A stretch of 6,567 nt of DNA from a virus (Duplodnaviria > Heunggongvirae > Uroviricota > Caudoviricetes), in IMG/VR virus record IMGVR_UViG_2681813316_000019, positions 1-6,567 of that record; one strand, given 5' to 3'. Under the pieces are notes generated by a model. That model was not told the origin of the DNA. It worked only from the letters and a program-made list of their open reading frames with translations, and did no database searches. A program made the position numbers and the translations under genes. Of the stretch, positions 1 through 6,567 are shown one piece after another; position 1 is the stretch's first letter, and every line of letters starts with the position of its first letter.

Positions 1-140
1 CTATCGGCGAAGGTGAGTTGATGGCTCATGATGTCCCTCTGGGATGCGCTCCGGATGAATATGATGATCTCATATCAGGAACTTGTTCGCACCTTCCCTA
101 ACTAACACTACGTTTCACACAGCAATTACATGGAAATAAC

Positions 141-488
141 ATGACTATCAAAGCGACTGACATAGAGATTCTTCATCGTTATGCTGAAGGGGTAATGGAA
201 CGTTCTAACCATCATGCAAAAAATGTTGGTGCAGCCGCTCTTACATTGCTAGGAGGTGTTATCTGGAAAGCCCTGCCCGGATCAATCGAGATAAGAACGT
301 ATAACGGAAGTCTTGCAAATATGGTGTGGTGGCAAAGCGAAAGAACATTAAAAAATTATGCAATCTCATACAACCATAATTCATGTGAAATTGAAATGAG
401 AGATGAATCAGTCAAAAGTGCTGTATTATTTAGCATTTCCAACGAAACCACTCCAGAAAAAATATTATCACAGCTTTCTGAGCTTTAA
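141..488 (+). CDS. Hypothetical protein (115 aa), family not recognised; oriented opposite to the adjacent replication operon
   Basis: Intact ATG-initiated ORF 141..488 from the ORF track. Hand count of sample lines gives roughly 40% G+C against about 50% in P/O. No motif I can assign. Sits beyond the 3' end of P where lambda has ren/nin genes, but on the other strand. Confidence 0.45.
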   Translation: MTIKATDIEILHRYAEGVMERSNHHAKNVGAAALTLLGGVIWKALPGSIEIRTYNGSLANMVWWQSERTLKNYAISYNHNSCEIEMRDESVKSAVLFSISNETTPEKILSQLSEL

Positions 489-493
489 TTAAA

Positions 494-511
494 GGCGGTG
501 CTAACACCGCC
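494..511. terminator. GC-rich hairpin (GGCGGTG-CTAA-CACCGCC) between the convergent ORF 141..488 and gene P; possible bidirectional terminator
   Basis: Perfect 7-bp inverted repeat with 4-nt loop seen directly. On the minus strand it is followed by TTTAATTAAA (partly U-rich); on the plus strand the tail is not U-rich. Placed between two convergent genes. Confidence 0.35.
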
Positions 512-692
512 CATACCATTACTCCACATCTTACGCAACTTGATAATTATGCTCTATTAAATACCCACAATATTTCATCAATGCATGGGTCAGCTACAAA
601 ATGTTTACCGTGGTAATTCCTGTTTTCGCAACATCTCAAAAGAACAATAAACACTGTATTTCTTCAAGTAACGAAGAATCTTTCTTTGCCCG

Positions 693-1394
693 TCATACAC
701 TTGCTCCTTTCAGCCCAAACTTAGCTTTGATTTCTGCGATCTTCGCCAGAGCCTGTGCACGATTTAGAGGTCTACCGCCCATAACAGGAAGTTGTTTTAC
801 TGGTTCAGGTATCGTCTCACCACGGTTAATTCGCGCTGTCATACAGGTCAGTTCATCGGCAGCCTTGCGCCGTAATTCCGCGTCAGTCAGCGCATTGGCC
901 CGCATGTTCTGGTACAGGTTGGTAACCAGCCAGTAGTGCGCGTTTGATTTCCATGGATAAGACTCTGCATCCGGATAAAGGCCACGCTTCCGGCAATACT
1001 CGTAAACCATATCAACCAGCTCGCTGGCGTTTGGCAGCCCGGCGTTAACGGATGCTTCTTCCCGGCACCAGGCGACAAACTGCCCGGGTGATGGCAGGAA
1101 TGGTCGATTCTGCCGACGGGCTACGCGCATTCCTGCGTTAACCTGTTCCATTGTGGTGATCCCGTTTTCCCGGAAAGCCAGAACCCACTGGCGGCGGATT
1201 TCGTTCAGTTCGTTCTGGTCACGGTTAGCCAGGCTCGCCGGGAAAGTTGCCAGTAACTGGCTGAACACACCGTTGATGATCTGCGCTACCTGCTGTACCT
1301 GCGGCTTTTCGTCGTACTGTTCCGGCATGTTGTTGGCGATCCGGCGCATCTGCTCACGGTCAAAGTTAACCATCTGTGCGGCGATGTTTTTCAT
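693..1394 (-). CDS. P: Replication protein P (DnaB helicase loader), lambda-type
   Basis: 233-aa translation matches phage lambda P as I remember it almost residue for residue along its whole length (MKNIAAQMVNFDREQMRRIANNMPEQYDEKPQV...AKIAEIKAKFGLKGASV). ATG at 1392-1394 overlaps the TGA stop of the upstream O gene (ATGA). Confidence 0.95.
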   Translation of the reverse strand: MKNIAAQMVNFDREQMRRIANNMPEQYDEKPQVQQVAQIINGVFSQLLATFPASLANRDQNELNEIRRQWVLAFRENGITTMEQVNAGMRVARRQNRPFLPSPGQFVAWCREEASVNAGLPNASELVDMVYEYCRKRGLYPDAESYPWKSNAHYWLVTNLYQNMRANALTDAELRRKAADELTCMTARINRGETIPEPVKQLPVMGGRPLNRAQALAKIAEIKAKFGLKGASV

Positions 1395-2320
1395 AAATCC
1401 ACCCCGTAAATCCAGTCAGTGTTTGTCAGGTCGAGTTTTGATTTTCCGGTTGTCACGCCAGCCTGTTGCTTGTTACGGTTGATTTCGAGTTGGGTCCACT
1501 TGTCGCGGAGTTTGGCCGGACTCAGCACGTTACCGGACCAGAAGTTGTCCTGGCATGCCCAGCGGAACAGCACGCACATGTCGCGGTGGTTACGTCCGTC
1601 ACGTTCACGCATCAGGCGGATATCGTTAGCCCACCCTGCAAAATTCGGTTTTCTGGCTGATGGTGCGATGGTCTTCACCATGTCAAACATCCACTCTGCG
1701 GCGGTCAGGTCTTCTGCTGTCCCCCACTTGCTGCCGCTCTGAATCGCAGCATCCGGTTTCACCACAGGAAGGTCGTTTTCTGGCTGGTCAGAGTATTCGC
1801 CAGAATTCTCGGACGAATAAGGTTTTATATTGTCTTTTGTTAGTTTGTCTTTTGTGTTTACCTGATTCGGGTAAGTGCCTTTACCTGATTTGGGTAAACT
1901 TTTCTTACCTGATTCAGGTAAATTTACCTCTTTCAGGTAAACTTTATTTTTCTTACCTGATTCGGGTAATGTTGACCATTCACTGACCACATTATTAATG
2001 CCGATATTCCGCCCGCTCTGAATAAAAATCCCACGCTTTACCAGAACACTTTTTGCAGCAGAACACTTGTGCGGCAATATCCCGGTCAACTCGGAAAGTT
2101 GCTCGTTGCTCACCCAATCCAGTTTTTTATTAAAGCCATATGTTTTGCGCATGACAGCCAGGAAGACCAGAAGCTGGTGCTGTGTTAATCCGGCCAGCAT
2201 CACAGCTTCCAGCAACTCATTTGCAATGCGCGTATAACCATCATCGAGATCTGCCACGCGCGGCTCCTTTTGTGCCACATCCGGCACTGGAAAATTGAAT
2301 ATCTCAGCAGTGTTTGCCAT
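1391..2320 (-). CDS. O: Replication initiator protein O (origin-binding); C-terminal domain lambda-like, N-terminal DNA-binding region divergent
   Basis: C-terminal about 60 aa (RDMCVLFRWACQDNFWSGNVLSPAKLRDKWTQLEINRNKQQAGVT...LDLTNTDWIYGVDL) matches lambda O closely; the N-terminus MANTAEIFNF resembles lambda O MTNTAKILNF. Start chosen at the ATG at 2318-2320 because it is preceded by GGGAGGAATT (strong SD). The ORF-track extension to 2410 adds 30 residues with no RBS and would overlap the upstream gene. Iterons lie inside the coding region, as in lambda. Confidence 0.9.
   Translation of the reverse strand: MANTAEIFNFPVPDVAQKEPRVADLDDGYTRIANELLEAVMLAGLTQHQLLVFLAVMRKTYGFNKKLDWVSNEQLSELTGILPHKCSAAKSVLVKRGIFIQSGRNIGINNVVSEWSTLPESGKKNKVYLKEVNLPESGKKSLPKSGKGTYPNQVNTKDKLTKDNIKPYSSENSGEYSDQPENDLPVVKPDAAIQSGSKWGTAEDLTAAEWMFDMVKTIAPSARKPNFAGWANDIRLMRERDGRNHRDMCVLFRWACQDNFWSGNVLSPAKLRDKWTQLEINRNKQQAGVTTGKSKLDLTNTDWIYGVDL
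1858..1969. repeat. Origin of replication: five 17-bp iterons (consensus TTACCTGATTCGGGTAA, arms TTACC/GGTAA) inside gene O, with an AT-rich segment at about 1806-1857 on the O-downstream side
   Basis: Seen directly: copies start at 1858, 1881, 1905, 1924 and 1953, each an imperfect palindrome TTACC-N7-GGTAA. The flanking segment 1811-1860 is strongly A+T-rich. Architecture matches ori-lambda (iterons then AT-rich region within O), but the iteron sequence is not the lambda one. Confidence 0.8.
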
Positions 2321-2406
2321 AATTCCTCCCGCAATGAGTGCGTTACGATTTGCACCTGAAAGTCGGCTCTGTTCCCGCAGACCGGCTTTCGCCATTTCTG
2401 AGCCTG

Positions 2407-2952
2407 TCATATTGCCCCCAACATGGTGGTAACCATCGCCATCAATGGACCAGCCAGATCCGGGTCCACACGAAACATCGACACAATACCTTCACTAATT
2501 TCCTTCAGTTTCTGGTGGCGTGGTGCGTTGAGAATGACTGCCTGTTTTGCCTCACTGAGTTCCTTTTCCATTTCAGCCAACCTAGCCATGAAGCTATCCT
2601 GCTCAACCAGGTAACCGCGATATTCCAGCGGTAGTACCGCTAGAATTGCCGGGGTCAGTTCACGCACGTTATTTCGGTATTTTTCAGAATCGAATTTGTT
2701 ATCGAGGAAGCGGAACAGCTTCTGGCGTGCACGGCTGACATCATCAGGGAAATCGATGGCGCCGCCGCCCTGCTCCCGATACTCATTCACAATGAGTGTG
2801 GCAACGACATCCTGATTATCTTCAGCCGACCAGGCGCGGACGGCATCACGGATTTTTTCGTGGCCTGGCACCTGTTTTGTTTGAGAACGATTTATCACCG
2901 CAGTCGGGCTAAATCCGCTAGTCTGTTGGTATGTAAGTGGTTGCATAGTCAT
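2407..2952 (-). CDS. YdaT-like protein at the cII position (function uncertain)
   Basis: 181-aa ORF immediately downstream (24-bp gap) of the Cro-like gene and upstream of O. Segments NEYREQGGG and TPAILAVLPLEYR resemble the Rac-prophage YdaT family as I remember it, which is why I call it YdaT-like. True start may be the second ATG (2944-2946), which has better spacing to an AAGG. Confidence 0.55.
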   Translation of the reverse strand: MTMQPLTYQQTSGFSPTAVINRSQTKQVPGHEKIRDAVRAWSAEDNQDVVATLIVNEYREQGGGAIDFPDDVSRARQKLFRFLDNKFDSEKYRNNVRELTPAILAVLPLEYRGYLVEQDSFMARLAEMEKELSEAKQAVILNAPRHQKLKEISEGIVSMFRVDPDLAGPLMAMVTTMLGAI

Positions 2953-2976
2953 TGCCTTATCAGTTAACGCCGCAGT

Positions 2977-3204
2977 TTAGGCGGCAGAATTACTCGCGTT
3001 AAACAATGGTGCGAGGTCGGGACGAATATCTGCTGGTTTAATCTTTCCACCAGTGGCTGAGACAATTTTCATTACATAGCGGGCATCAATTCCGCCACCG
3101 TGTAGCCAACGCCAAACTGTGGGTTGGGCTACACCGCATAGATCTGCCAGTCGTTTTTGACTACCTGTAATACTGATTGCGAGTTGAATGGTTTGATTTG
3201 TCAT
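2977..3204 (-). CDS. Cro-like small HTH regulator (YdaS-like)
   Basis: 76 aa from the ATG at 3202-3204 (the ORF-track start at 3210 is a TTG). HTH segment GSQKRLADLCGVAQPTVWRW and the downstream IRPDL motif resemble YdaS/Cro-type regulators. Divergent from the repressor gene across a 110-bp operator region. AGGA lies 8 nt upstream. Confidence 0.75.
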   Translation of the reverse strand: MTNQTIQLAISITGSQKRLADLCGVAQPTVWRWLHGGGIDARYVMKIVSATGGKIKPADIRPDLAPLFNASNSAA

Positions 3205-3314
3205 TATCAATTCCTATTGGTATTGCAATGAATGAATAATAGCAATGCGTATTAATCCAAGTAATAGCAAAACGTGTTTTGACCATCAATACGCAAGCGT
3301 ATAAATTAAAACTT
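3205..3314. promoter_or_regulatory. Divergent immunity control region (OR-like): repeated operator motif TAATAGCAA(T) and candidate PR and PRM promoters
   Basis: TAATAGCAAT at 3237-3246 and TAATAGCAA at 3262-3270, plus a related palindromic ATTGCAAT at 3222-3229. Candidate PRM on plus strand: TTGAC(C) 3279-3284, about 16 bp, TATAAA 3300-3305, placing the transcription start at or just before the repressor ATG at 3315. Candidate PR on minus strand: TTGATG (plus coords 3284-3289), 17 bp, TATTAC (3261-3266). Promoter hexamers are by eye, not scored. Confidence 0.55.
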
Positions 3315-4007
3315 ATGAAAAAAGAAACTCTTGCTGATCGCTTAAACCTAGCGATGGAACAATCTGGAATGTCTCAAGGCGCTCTTGCAAAGGCGTCTGG
3401 CGTAGCTCAACCCACAATCTGGAGACTGACAAGCGGCAACGCGCGCGGCTCAACAAAAATTGTTGAAATAGCTAATGCATTGGGTGTTCGAACAGAATGG
3501 CTCTCATCAGGCATAGGCCCGATGAGAAATGACGGTCAACAATCAGGGAAGCCTGCTGTCAGCCATTCAAAATACTTCAAGATTGACGTTCTTGATATAG
3601 AAGTCAGTGCCGGGCCGGGTGTAATCAACCGTGAGTTTGTAGAAGTTCTACGCTCGGTTGAGTACTCGTTTGACGATGCTCGTCACATGTTCGATGGCAG
3701 GAAGGCGGAAAATATCCGCATCATTAACGTGCGTGGTGACAGCATGTCAGGAACGATCGAACCAGGTGATCTTCTGTTCGTTGATATCACGGTTAAATCT
3801 TTCGACGGTGATGGTATCTATGCGTTTCTGTATGACGACACAGCCCATGTAAAGCGCCTGCAAATGATGAAGGATAAGCTGCTGGTTATCTCTGATAACA
3901 AGAGCTACTCACCGTGGGACCCGATCGAGAAAGACGAGATGAACCGGGTATTCATCTTCGGGAAAGTCATCGGAAGCATGCCGCAGACGTATAGGAAGCA
4001 TGGGTAG
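3315..4007 (+). CDS. CI-type prophage repressor: N-terminal HTH_XRE domain plus C-terminal LexA-like S24 peptidase (autocleavable, SOS-inducible type)
   Basis: HTH MSQGALAKASGVAQPTIWRLTSG; candidate Ala-Gly cleavage site in EVSAGPGV; catalytic Ser motif VRGDSMSG and Lys in AHVKRL, as in LexA and lambda CI. Start set at the ATG at 3315 (MKKETL...); the ORF-track start at 3279 is a TTG. No SD precedes 3315. Confidence 0.85.
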   Translation: MKKETLADRLNLAMEQSGMSQGALAKASGVAQPTIWRLTSGNARGSTKIVEIANALGVRTEWLSSGIGPMRNDGQQSGKPAVSHSKYFKIDVLDIEVSAGPGVINREFVEVLRSVEYSFDDARHMFDGRKAENIRIINVRGDSMSGTIEPGDLLFVDITVKSFDGDGIYAFLYDDTAHVKRLQMMKDKLLVISDNKSYSPWDPIEKDEMNRVFIFGKVIGSMPQTYRKHG

Positions 4008-4118
4008 TGAAGGACGTGTCAACTCTATTTTGTAAGCTATCCAGACTCACAGTTGCAGATCGACGAGTAACTTACATACAGCACAAAAAAACAATATGCG
4101 AGTGCTTTTAGACTAGAC

Positions 4119-4133
4119 TTACCATAATGGTAA
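4119..4133. promoter_or_regulatory. 15-bp palindrome TTACCAT-A-ATGGTAA overlapping the first ATG of the toxin-like gene; candidate operator for the module
   Basis: Perfect 7-bp arms seen directly. Resembles the ACCT-N-AGGT type palindromes bound by MqsA-family antitoxins (from memory). Position at the 5' end of the three-gene module. Confidence 0.35.
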
Positions 4134-4537
4134 CAAGTATGATTCTTAGCAGATATGTGGGAACTCCTCCCCGTGATGGCGAGGACAGAAAGATTCAAGG
4201 TGGTCCGCTTTATTTAGATATCATTGATTTGATTGATGAATGTGACACACTGCCTTGGACTAAACGGTGTATCAGGGATGTTCAATCGCTTTCTTTAGAT
4301 GCAGATGACATCAAATCTATGGTGATAAAAGCAGTCACTAAAGGGAGATTTCTAGGTTCAGAATGGTGTCAAGGCAGTAAACCAGGTGTATGGGCAGCTT
4401 GTGATGCTTATAGCTTTGAGCACTCATTTTGGTGCCAAGCTATGCATAAAGAACTTAATAACGAGTTCTACATTAAATTTTTTGTAAACATTACTGGCAA
4501 TGTAGTGCTTACAGTATCTCTTCATCTCTCTAATTGA
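4127..4537 (+). CDS. MqsR-like toxin (RelE-superfamily mRNA interferase fold), putative toxin of a TAC module
   Basis: 136-aa ORF. C-terminal half (DDIKSMVIKAV...WCQAMHKELNNEFYIKFFVNITGNVVLTVSLHLSN) aligns by eye with E. coli MqsR (DFYKSMTT...YLKITVIHDVLIVSFKEK). Toxin-first gene order matches mqsR-mqsA. About 25 N-terminal residues are extra; an alternative start is ATG 4139. No clear SD. Confidence 0.55.
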   Translation: MVTSMILSRYVGTPPRDGEDRKIQGGPLYLDIIDLIDECDTLPWTKRCIRDVQSLSLDADDIKSMVIKAVTKGRFLGSEWCQGSKPGVWAACDAYSFEHSFWCQAMHKELNNEFYIKFFVNITGNVVLTVSLHLSN

Positions 4538-4561
4538 GTGATGATAAATGAGGATTTTTAT

Positions 4562-5149
4562 ATGAGAAACAACAACATATGTCCAGTTTGTGGTGTAGGT
4601 CATCTCACCGTGGAGATGGAGTATGATGATGTTACTTATAAAGGGGAAACAAAAAATCTCCCAATAAGGTTTTCTGTGTGTGATCAATGTGGTTCGGAAA
4701 CTGCCACACCAGTCGATTTACGAGAAAACAAACGAATTTTCAATGAATACAAAAAGTCTATCGATGGACTTTTAACAGGAAAAGAATTAAAAAAAATTAG
4801 AACTGAAGTATGGATGATAACCCAGCAAAAGGCATCCTCTATATTTGGTGGGGGGCCTAAGGCATTTTCCAAGTATGAATCTGATGATGTCATTCAATCA
4901 GAAGCAATGGATAAACTGATGCGTTTAGCAGCAGAAGTTCCTGATGCATTCAAAAGGTTACGGGAATTATCTGGCGAAATCAAAGTTGAAAGAACAGTCT
5001 CATCATCTAAATCTTTACCTATATGGAAATCTGAAGCAAAAGCACAATTTGAAAACGATGATCAGGGATTTGACAGCAAATCACCAGCCCAAACAAAAAT
5101 GAATCAAACATCAATAAAGATAAAAACTGTTGCTAAGCGGGTAGCATGA
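4562..5149 (+). CDS. MqsA-like antitoxin: N-terminal zinc ribbon (CPVC...CDQC) plus HTH_XRE domain, with a C-terminal extension of about 55-60 aa
   Basis: ICPVCGVGH...CDQCGSE resembles the MqsA Zn-binding domain (MKCPVCHQGE...YCVHCEE). ITQQKASSIFGGGPKAFSKYESDD matches the MqsA HTH region LTQKEASEIFGGGVNAFSRYEKGN. Start placed at ATG 4562, preceded by GAGGA with a 7-nt spacer; the ORF-track start at 4538 is GTG. The protein is about 65 aa longer than E. coli MqsA, mostly at the C-terminus. Confidence 0.75.
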   Translation: MRNNNICPVCGVGHLTVEMEYDDVTYKGETKNLPIRFSVCDQCGSETATPVDLRENKRIFNEYKKSIDGLLTGKELKKIRTEVWMITQQKASSIFGGGPKAFSKYESDDVIQSEAMDKLMRLAAEVPDAFKRLRELSGEIKVERTVSSSKSLPIWKSEAKAQFENDDQGFDSKSPAQTKMNQTSIKIKTVAKRVA

Positions 5150-5649
5150 TGAATGAACTTCTTAGATCAGCAATAGACGCATTATCAATAATGCATATCA
5201 ATATCAGAGAATCTAACTTTGCTTTTTCTGAAGGGTATAATAGCTTTAACTTCAACAGCATAAATAAGCAAACACAATCATTTCGTAAGATAAAAAAAAT
5301 CGAAGCTATTGAATTAGTAAGTGACGATGACTCATTAAAAAATGAGCTATATTACTCTTTTCACTACTCAGTTGGGCTTAGATTTATTGCAAAATCCGAA
5401 GAAACATCTAAAGACGAAAATGATGTTGATACAATTTTTTCTATAGAAGCAATTTTTGAGGCGATATATCGCTCAAAAAGAGAATTATCTAAAGAAGAGT
5501 TAGAAGAATTTGCTAAGCAAAATGTAGGTTTTAATGTATGGCCTTTTTGGCGAGAGTATGTTCAAAACAGCACATCCAGAATGGGAATTACTACAATAGC
5601 TATACCATTCTTTAAATTCAATAAATCAGACATACCTTCATTAGATTAA
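5146..5649 (+). CDS. SecB-like chaperone, putative third component of a TAC module
   Basis: 167 aa. C-terminal segment FNVWPFWREYVQNSTSRMGITTIAIPFFKF matches the conserved SecB segment [34 protein letters not shown]; IFSI and an acidic central region also align. Start ATG overlaps the antitoxin stop (ATGA at 5146-5149), suggesting translational coupling. Hand-counted G+C on one sample line is about one third. Confidence 0.6.
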   Translation: MMNELLRSAIDALSIMHINIRESNFAFSEGYNSFNFNSINKQTQSFRKIKKIEAIELVSDDDSLKNELYYSFHYSVGLRFIAKSEETSKDENDVDTIFSIEAIFEAIYRSKRELSKEELEEFAKQNVGFNVWPFWREYVQNSTSRMGITTIAIPFFKFNKSDIPSLD

Positions 5650-5663
5650 ATTCAAATATAACT

Positions 5664-5690
5664 CCCGGCTACCGTGCCGGGTTTTCTTTT
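5664..5690 (+). terminator. Rho-independent terminator ending the repressor-side operon (t_imm equivalent)
   Basis: CCCGGC-TACCGT-GCCGGG hairpin (6-bp GC stem) followed directly by TTTTCTTTT, 15 bp after the stop of the SecB-like gene. Confidence 0.8.
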
Positions 5691-5780
5691 GTCCCCTCCC
5701 CTCATCACACACCGTTCAAAAAACCACCACGACCTCACTTCAGTTATCGCTATGCGATGCAAGTCACAAAATTAATTCTT

Positions 5781-5860
5781 TTTGCTATCAAACATTTAAT
5801 ATCAAAACACATCAACTAATAGCAATAAGTATTGATATCACCAATAGCAATAGCTATTAT
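5781..5860 (+). promoter_or_regulatory. OL/PL-like region: operator motif copies shared with the OR region, overlapping a candidate sigma70 promoter for the leftward early operon
   Basis: TAATAGCAAT at 5817-5826 (exact 10-mer also at 3237-3246), AATAGCAAT at 5843-5851 adjoining palindrome AATAGCTATT (5849-5858), and reverse-oriented TTTGCTAT at 5781-5788. Candidate promoter: TTGATA 5832-5837, 17-bp spacer, TATTAT 5855-5860, with operator copies in the spacer. Confidence 0.55.
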
Positions 5861-6137
5861 CACCATATCGCAACAACACAACGATACGGCAACCACCTGA
5901 TTCACCGTTGCGATGACCGCTTAGATCCGCAGCTTGAATTTCAGCAGGCTTCGGGGAGTGCGAGGGATGAAACGGACGCGTGAACGTCGGTGTGACCAGC
6001 TGAAATCAACTCAACATTTCATACCTTAGTCGCTTCAACGAGGCGGCTTAGTTATGACAACCGGCGGCCATCCACCGCCTGAATACGCGCAGAAGTCTTT
6101 ATATGTTCAGCAGCCCAGCTTACGGGCAGGAGTTTTT

Positions 6138-6344
6138 ATGGTTCATCAACATTACGGAACGCAGACCGTTAATCGCGGTGCGGTCATGCCAGGAATGCTG
6201 GTCAAACGCAAAGATGGTACCTGGACTGCATCAGCTAATTTACGCGGACGACTTTATCTGCATCGCGGCATTGAGCGCACTTATACCCGTGACTTGCTCG
6301 TGGAAGTTTTTCTCGACGGACGCGGTAACGGCCTCAATCACTAA
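6138..6344 (+). CDS. Hypothetical small early protein (68 aa from ATG 6138), upstream of gam
   Basis: ATG 6138 is preceded by AGGAG with a 5-nt spacer. The frame is open back to 6030 (ORF track starts it at ATG 6054, 96 aa). Composition looks protein-like. No family recognised. Confidence 0.35.
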
Positions 6345-6419
6345 TCCCCTTTCCTGTTTTCCTAATCAGCCTGGCATTTCGCGGGCGATATTTTCACAGC
6401 CATTTTCAGGAGTTCAGCC

Positions 6420-6567
6420 ATGAACGCTTATTACATTCAGGATCGTCTTGAGGCTCAGAGCTGGGCGCGTCACTACCAGCAGATCGCCCGTGAAGAGAAA
6501 GAGGCAGAACTGGCAGACGACATGGAAAAAGGCCTGCCCCAGCACCTGTTTGAATCGCTATGCATCG
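6420..6567 (+). CDS. gam: Host-nuclease (RecBCD) inhibitor Gam, 5' portion only (continues past window end)
   Basis: Translation [49 protein letters not shown] matches the lambda Gam (GamS form) N-terminus as I remember it, with one conservative difference. AGGAG lies 7 nt upstream of the ATG. The window ends at 6567 inside the gene. Confidence 0.9.

Follow-up and report, generated by a model that had tools for sequence, protein, structure and literature searches.

The stretch of DNA analyzed here (hereafter the window) comprises the 6,567 nucleotides (positions 1 to 6,567) of the IMG/VR virus record IMGVR_UViG_2681813316_000019 of the Caudoviricetes, and spans the part of a lambdoid prophage that holds its immunity and replication genes. 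Between its CI-type repressor gene and an intrinsic terminator preceding a PL-like promoter lie three tightly packed open reading frames (ORFs) on the + strand (4127-4537, 4538 or 4562-5149, and 5146-5649), which respectively encode an MqsR-like toxin, an MqsA-family antitoxin and a SecB-like chaperone, MqsC (Table 1). A first-pass annotation, based on the nucleotide sequence alone, had singled out the region from 4119, where a palindrome covering the toxin start codon begins, to 5690, the end of the terminator T-run, as a toxin-antitoxin-chaperone (TAC) module at the position taken by rexAB in phage lambda. Location of the ORFs, the terminator and the PL-like promoter bore out this layout, and the genes are AT-rich as had been remarked, their GC fraction being 0.30-0.40 over 4050-5700, while the phage genes on either side have 0.45-0.58.

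We consider it highly probable that this module is an allele of the MqsRAC system of Escherichia coli C496_10, a phage-defense TAC. Vassallo et al. (2022, PMC9519451) list six cloning primers for mqsR, mqsRA and mqsC in their Table S8, all of which have exact matches in the window where the genes begin or end, at 4139-4159, 4514-4537, 5132-5149 (the primer pBAD-mqsRA-R), 5146-5168 and 5627-5649. The part of the 'MsqRAC gene fragment' from the same table that could be compared, beginning at 4039 of the window, is identical at 376 of 379 positions (99.2%), with one difference corresponding to K46R in the toxin. In that study MqsR of C496_10 was found to be toxic, with rescue only by MqsA plus MqsC, and the system protected the K-12 strain MG1655 strongly against T2 and not against T4, this protection being removed by surplus MqsC. 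A second study reported that T2 plaquing falls 2,100- to 5,000-fold with the system expressed 'from its native promoter' (Fernandez-Garcia et al. 2023, PMC10783111); the published construct, pCV1-mqsRAC, is a low-copy, promoterless vector with only 88 nucleotides of native upstream DNA. TACs of the MqsRA type had already been defined by Bordes et al. (2016). The module is therefore known already, even at the level of its exact sequence, and is not a new system. The TAC architecture proposed in the first-pass annotation is upheld by the gene order, the antitoxin tail and the published need for both MqsA and MqsC in rescue, and the defense role proposed there by the published protection against T2. 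What novelty is left concerns details of regulation and catalysis. The published accounts of C496_10 MqsRAC (PMC9519451; PMC10783111) do not describe the slot in the prophage, the palindrome or the alternative toxin start at 4127.

Table 1. Features of the window, in order of position.
Feature	Coordinates	Strand	Remarks
Replication gene P	693-1394	-	
Replication gene O	1391-2410	-	
YdaT-domain gene	2407-2952	-	
Cro-like YdaS/HTH gene	2977-3210	-	
CI-type repressor gene	3315-4007	+	Left slot boundary; Peptidase_S24 67 bits, HTH_3 28.6 bits
Exchangeable cargo cassette	4009-5662		Absent from sister phage Lambda_4C10 (L013)
Perfect 15-bp palindrome TTACCATAATGGTAA	4119-4133		Covers toxin ATG 4127; contains -10-like CATAAT (4123-4128)
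MqsR-like toxin gene	4127-4537	+	136 amino acids from ATG 4127
MqsA-family antitoxin gene	4562-5149	+	195 amino acids: Zn ribbon, HTH domain, tail
Antitoxin C-terminal extension	4964-5146	+	Residues 135-195, 61 amino acids; W155, F163, F170; Val-Ala end
SecB-like chaperone gene (MqsC)	5146-5649	+	167 amino acids
Intrinsic terminator	5664-5690	+	CCCGGCTACCGTGCCGGG then TTTTCTTTTG; stem 5664-5681 plus T-run; right slot boundary
PL-like promoter	5832-5860	+	TTGATA-17-TATTAT, 10/12 matches

The antitoxin is the most readily classified of the three proteins, scoring 113.2 bits against TIGR03830 (cut-off 61.8) and 63.9 bits against PF15731 (cut-off 30). Its reading frame can be opened at GTG 4538, giving 203 amino acids, or at the annotated ATG 4562, which has a GAGGA Shine-Dalgarno sequence 7 nucleotides upstream and gives 195. 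In an alignment with MqsA of E. coli K-12 the cysteines of the N-terminal CxxC...CxxC zinc ribbon (C7, C10, C40 and C43) are invariant, and homology to the K-12 protein, which is devoid of a tail, stops at residue 134. The extra tail beyond this point, noticed in the first-pass annotation, is present in all 9 TAC-linked MqsAs sampled, where it spans 45-85 amino acids with a conserved tryptophan in 8 of the 9; the enterobacterial versions end in Val-Ala or Ala-Ala. The tail is presumably a chaperone-addiction (ChAD) element, by analogy with other TACs, for which such elements, with their aromatic residues and Val-Ala or Ala-Ala ends, are described in the literature: for HigA1 of Mycobacterium tuberculosis and HigA of NT1F31 removal of the tail makes the antitoxin chaperone-independent.

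The third gene overlaps the antitoxin stop codon by the four nucleotides ATGA (5146-5149), and its product firmly belongs to the SecB fold (that of the PF02556 family), as judged from a structure model built with 11 sequences. Both in structure and in sequence its best match is the TAC-dedicated chaperone Rv1957 of M. tuberculosis and not a housekeeping SecB; a profile of its family recovers Rv1957 with E 2e-7, and 5 of 18 members of the family match Pfam SecB, with a best E of 1.9e-9. The earlier description as SecB-like with an ATGA overlap is thus borne out by the overlap, the fold and the kinship to Rv1957, although the window protein itself scores below the Pfam cut-off.

The first gene, which the gene order and the identity of its neighbor place upstream of an MqsA-type antitoxin, displays the three-dimensional fold of MqsR. 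We accordingly regard it as an MqsR-fold toxin from a family without profile annotation, whose relationship to MqsR is detectable by fold only; no Pfam domain was found in 50 of its homologs, and the MqsR family profile (Pfam PF15723) gives no significant match. Its designation as an MqsR-family toxin is thus supported by the fold, by its place before an MqsA-type antitoxin and by its published neutralization, and not by a profile. Lys56 and Tyr81 are essential in MqsR (Yu et al. 2022), and in a low-confidence alignment Tyr81 lies opposite the near-invariant Y115 of the new family (YIKF vs YLKF). The invariant polar residues of the toxin family include H133, D93, C92 and K117.

Comparison with the sister phage Lambda_4C10, whose repressor is the same, delineated the module as a cassette: blastn homology ends at 4008 (97%), one base past the repressor stop codon, and is restored from 5663 (95%), at the base of the terminator. 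The terminator itself belongs to the shared phage backbone and is kept in Lambda_4C10 and other lambdoid phages. Between the same break points Lambda_4C10 carries the candidate system PDC-M11A/B (L013 2081-3497; PADLOC E 2.9e-133 and 6.8e-52), namely a protein of 353 amino acids and a 125-amino-acid ASCH-domain protein, which points to an exchangeable slot for defense cargo. This slot, between repressor and terminator, is the rexAB position that had been claimed; such a placement of a TAC, offered in the first-pass annotation as its own suggestion, had already been published for the sister TAC HigBAC (Mets et al. 2024). The module occurs in 18 of 5,426 complete E. coli genomes (99.5-99.9% identical), and at the same position in the temperate phage PhiR70_1, on which we found no literature. 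A complete, unannotated MqsRAC with ~74-75% DNA identity is present in Klebsiella phage 2b LV-2017 (L003 4053-5569).

More distant toxin homologs (35-57% identity) invariably precede an MqsA gene and a third gene, and the toxin-antitoxin-chaperone order is kept in all 10 loci sampled (L003-L012). Some of these modules again reside in lambdoid prophages, between the repressor and N or kil (L004, L006/7 and L008), one lies in a non-lambdoid Erwinia context (L005), and others are found next to chromosomal defense genes, either adjoining the BREX genes PglZ and BrxL (L010, 1-5485) or between type IIG restriction-methylase and McrBC-type genes (L011/L012, 1-8432). The McrBC neighbor is of note in its own right, as cooperation of McrBC with MqsRAC has been published (PMC10783111). 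PGAP labels the toxin a 'hypothetical protein' and the chaperone a 'protein-export chaperone SecB' (e.g. L002 6132-7642), and PADLOC 2.0 contains no model recognizing the whole MqsRAC system; the RefSeq annotation under-describes a validated defense module.

The suggestion that the module is co-transcribed with the repressor gene, as rexAB is, was only partly sustained. No strong sigma-70 match was seen within 4008-4126. The + strand has no terminator-like site from the repressor gene to the start of the module, so that read-through may occur; however, the promoterless construct with its 88 nucleotides of native upstream DNA protects, which argues against a dependence on such read-through. The palindrome, TTACCAT(A/T)ATGGTAA, recurs at -8 to +7 of the toxin ATG in 9 of the 10 loci (L003-L008 and L010-L012; the version in L009 is degenerate), in upstream DNA that is otherwise unrelated. 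The spacing of its core, ACC-N5-GGT, equals that of the E. coli MqsA site, AACCT-N3-AGGTT, and it is probably the MqsA operator, a candidate assignment made from these motifs; no second copy above chance was found. In four lineages (L006, L008, L010 and L011/12) TTGACA or TTGAAA stands exactly 16 nucleotides upstream of the CAT(A/T)AT of the palindrome, and from this consensus -35 at constant spacing it is very probable that the -10 element of an autoregulated promoter lies inside the palindrome. A good -35 ahead of the palindrome is missing in the window. Another candidate promoter, TAGACT-18-TATGAT (4114-4143), was rejected, as its start site would fall downstream of both candidate start codons of the toxin.

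With a candidate operator and promoter placed over the toxin start, the question arises from which start codon, and from which transcript, the toxin is made. Across the family it is ATG 4127 that is conserved as the start, which differs from the annotated and published start, ATG 4139 (132 amino acids), used in the toxic pBAD construct; this second in-frame ATG just downstream occurs in the enterobacterial subgroup, and other lineages are without such a codon. The conserved palindrome accounts for the near-invariant Met-Val at the toxin start and the A-initial codon for residue 3, and the conservation of Met-Val may thus reflect the DNA rather than the protein. With the -10 element in the palindrome, transcription would be expected to begin past ATG 4127, in conflict with the use of that codon. 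One reading of these features, to which we assign a low likelihood, is that full-length toxin arises only from upstream read-through and, separately, that the toxin has an altered catalytic set. Under it, transcripts from the palindrome promoter would begin after the first ATG, and could in E. coli yield only a near-leaderless, weakly translated toxin from ATG 4139, while relatives lacking the second ATG would obtain from them antitoxin and chaperone but no toxin; H133, D93, C92 and K117 may act in place of Lys56 with the MqsR fold kept. If this were true, production of full-length toxin from repressor-gene read-through would tie the toxin dose to lysogeny, and the target or specificity of the toxin may differ from that of MqsR.

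The best-supported mechanism for the module, by analogy with other TACs, is titration of the chaperone by a phage protein. In the uninfected lysogen the MqsC tetramer would hold the disordered, aromatic-studded tail of MqsA, keeping the antitoxin soluble and undegraded, such that its zinc-ribbon domain could bind and block the MqsR-fold toxin and its HTH dimer would probably bind the palindrome that covers the toxin start codon and there repress the promoter of the module. Upon infection, as by T2, an abundant phage protein, probably a structural one, would compete for MqsC, whereupon MqsA would be lost and the toxin, probably an mRNA endonuclease, would stop translation, leaving the infection aborted or the cell dormant. 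The inferred parts of this scheme are the action of the toxin as a nuclease, the nature of the trigger, the role of the palindrome as operator, and the choice between death and dormancy.

Several results weigh against this reading. The first gene retrieved no match in Pfam, NCBIfam, PADLOC or PHROGs (E <= 0.1 for Pfam, NCBIfam and PHROGs), phmmer and family hidden Markov model searches with it found nothing among PDB sequences, hhalign against E. coli MqsR gave a probability of only 2.9% (E 0.015), and Foldseek returned nothing significant. In the low-confidence alignment, which is the only one available, Lys56 of MqsR falls opposite Gly77, and the catalytic lysine may be missing relative to MqsR; given this and the want of a sequence link to MqsR, the RNase activity of the toxin is an assumption of the literature. 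The third gene scores 16.5 bits against Pfam SecB (PF02556), under the gathering score of 26. No phage trigger of MqsRAC is reported in the literature searched, and Fernandez-Garcia et al. (2023, PMC10783111) described the outcome as dormancy and persister formation with survival, in cooperation with McrBC, and not as suicide.

The last of these points underlies the most durable alternative, in which reversible dormancy buys time for restriction systems in place of abortive cell death. About 27-30% of cells survive T2 attack, with antibiotic-tolerant survivors and a dependence on McrBC (PMC10783111), and the distant MqsRAC of L011/L012 directly adjoins McrBC-type genes; on the other hand the cells scored as persisters made up only ~0.1-2%, for a multiplicity of infection of 0.1 (PMC10783111), and other TACs are described as abortive-infection systems. 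We regard this alternative as a tentative one with a real chance of being correct, and note that dormancy and abortive infection are not mutually exclusive. It is unlikely that the trigger is a general host shut-off, with a labile antitoxin simply decaying, rather than a specific phage protein titrating the chaperone. The Val-Ala end of the antitoxin does resemble the ClpXP degron of M. tuberculosis HigA1, and the missing report of a trigger would fit such a cause; nevertheless, T2 is restricted and its close relative T4 is not, though both shut off host expression, extra chaperone abolishes defense, and related TACs sense lambda gpV directly via the chaperone.

Type II toxin-antitoxin modules classically stabilize mobile elements, the higBA genes on plasmid Rts1 being a cited example, and the module could be envisaged as mainly an addiction cassette that stabilizes the prophage by post-segregational killing, its defense phenotype arising as a by-product of plasmid-borne over-expression. 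All the defense data indeed come from a plasmid construct in K-12 and not from a lysogen. Yet that construct is low-copy and promoterless with native upstream DNA and still lowers T2 plaquing by more than three orders of magnitude, other defense candidates occupy the slot in sister phages, distant relatives sit in chromosomal defense islands, and the rarity of the module among complete genomes is as expected for accessory defense cargo, all of which render this explanation quite improbable. That the third gene is an ordinary protein-export SecB unrelated to the two genes upstream, as its PGAP name would have it, is scarcely credible in view of its best match to Rv1957, the overlap of its start with the antitoxin stop, its co-occurrence with toxin and MqsA in 10 of 10 loci and its published requirement for neutralization.

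Elsewhere in the window, the repressor ORF opens at TTG 3279, upstream of the annotated start, and its counterparts in PhiR70_1 and strain PI7 are annotated as cI or XRE regulator. Antisense ORFs within the module (4424-4687, 4684-4893 and 5133-5261) are unsupported and of a kind expected in AT-rich DNA. The PL-like promoter includes two TATCACC motifs, at 5836 and 5858, and in related records kil, gam, bet and exo come after it. Between this promoter and the kil-like gene (5690-6053) no ORF resembling N is present. The 186-nucleotide leader after the promoter has no Rfam match, nor did a scan of the whole window give a credible one, and a put-like structured RNA in this N-less leader was rejected, its fold being no better than that of shuffled sequences (z -0.09); the means of antitermination in this phage is not evident from the window. 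At the ren position downstream of P lies an AT-rich gene on the + strand (141-488), which runs counter to the replication genes and has matches to Pfam VCH_CASS14 (69 bits; an integron cassette protein) and to phrog_5959 (E 9e-80). This stretch is absent from the 18 MqsRAC genomes and present in 181 further E. coli genomes, O26 and O103 strains among them, and looks like another swappable cargo gene. Positions 1-96 match up to 43 places per genome, with many plasmids among the matches, as would fit the terminus of an insertion sequence or of some other multi-copy element.

A reading of raw sequence can thus recover a validated defense system together with its genomic logic, while adding no new system. 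To the work on MqsRAC our analysis contributes the cassette boundaries, the swap with PDC-M11, a predicted conserved operator and promoter, and the fold-only kinship of the toxin. With respect to C496_10 MqsRAC the module shows allelic differences only. The MqsR/MqsA pair of E. coli K-12, in contrast, is devoid of both chaperone and antitoxin tail, and its toxin lacks the ~35 extra N-terminal residues of the window toxin; the aligned cores of the two toxins share 18% identity, and Lys56 is apparently absent from that of the window. The operators also differ, being TTACCAT A ATGGTAA (candidate) in the window and AACCT-N3-AGGTT in K-12. The MqsRAC of Vibrio cholerae RC385, compared here by its published description, combines an MqsR/MqsA pair with a SecB-like chaperone on which dependence has been shown, and Bordes et al. 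(2016) tested no defense role for it. The M. tuberculosis TAC HigB1-HigA1-SecB(TA) (Rv1955-Rv1957) has toxin and antitoxin of other families, is chromosomal and described as stress-responsive, and has a chaperone only ~16% identical to that of the window. CmdTAC (PD-T4-9) is likewise a prophage-borne defense TAC in which extra chaperone abolishes defense, and its chaperone CmdC is weakly similar to the third gene (PADLOC E 7e-4); however, its toxin is an mRNA ADP-ribosyltransferase, it occupies a P2-like phage hotspot and it protects against T4.

Lambda RexAB comprises two proteins and works through membrane depolarization. It shares with the module a general role in prophage-encoded exclusion and the position from cI to the terminator before PL; no match to RexA or RexB was obtained in Pfam, NCBIfam, PADLOC or PHROGs, and the two are related neither in sequence nor in mechanism. 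A close parallel in setting is HigBAC of E. coli NT1F31 (Mets et al. 2024), a TAC of a lambdoid prophage that lies directly after the repressor gene in the rexAB slot, defends against phages and has a SecB-like chaperone recognizing aromatic residues of the antitoxin tail. The two are nonetheless distinct systems, as the family, length and tail of the antitoxin rule out their identity: that of HigBAC is of the HigA type, with 218 amino acids and a 96-residue tail (W128, F158, F188 and Y214), whereas that of the window is of the MqsA type, with 195 amino acids and a 61-residue tail (W155, F163 and F170). The protection given by HigBAC, which senses lambda gpV, is directed at siphoviruses, and that given by MqsRAC at T2. 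TAC modules illustrate how a folding chaperone can serve as a sensor of phage proteins, and the immunity regions of prophages are rich in such cargo.

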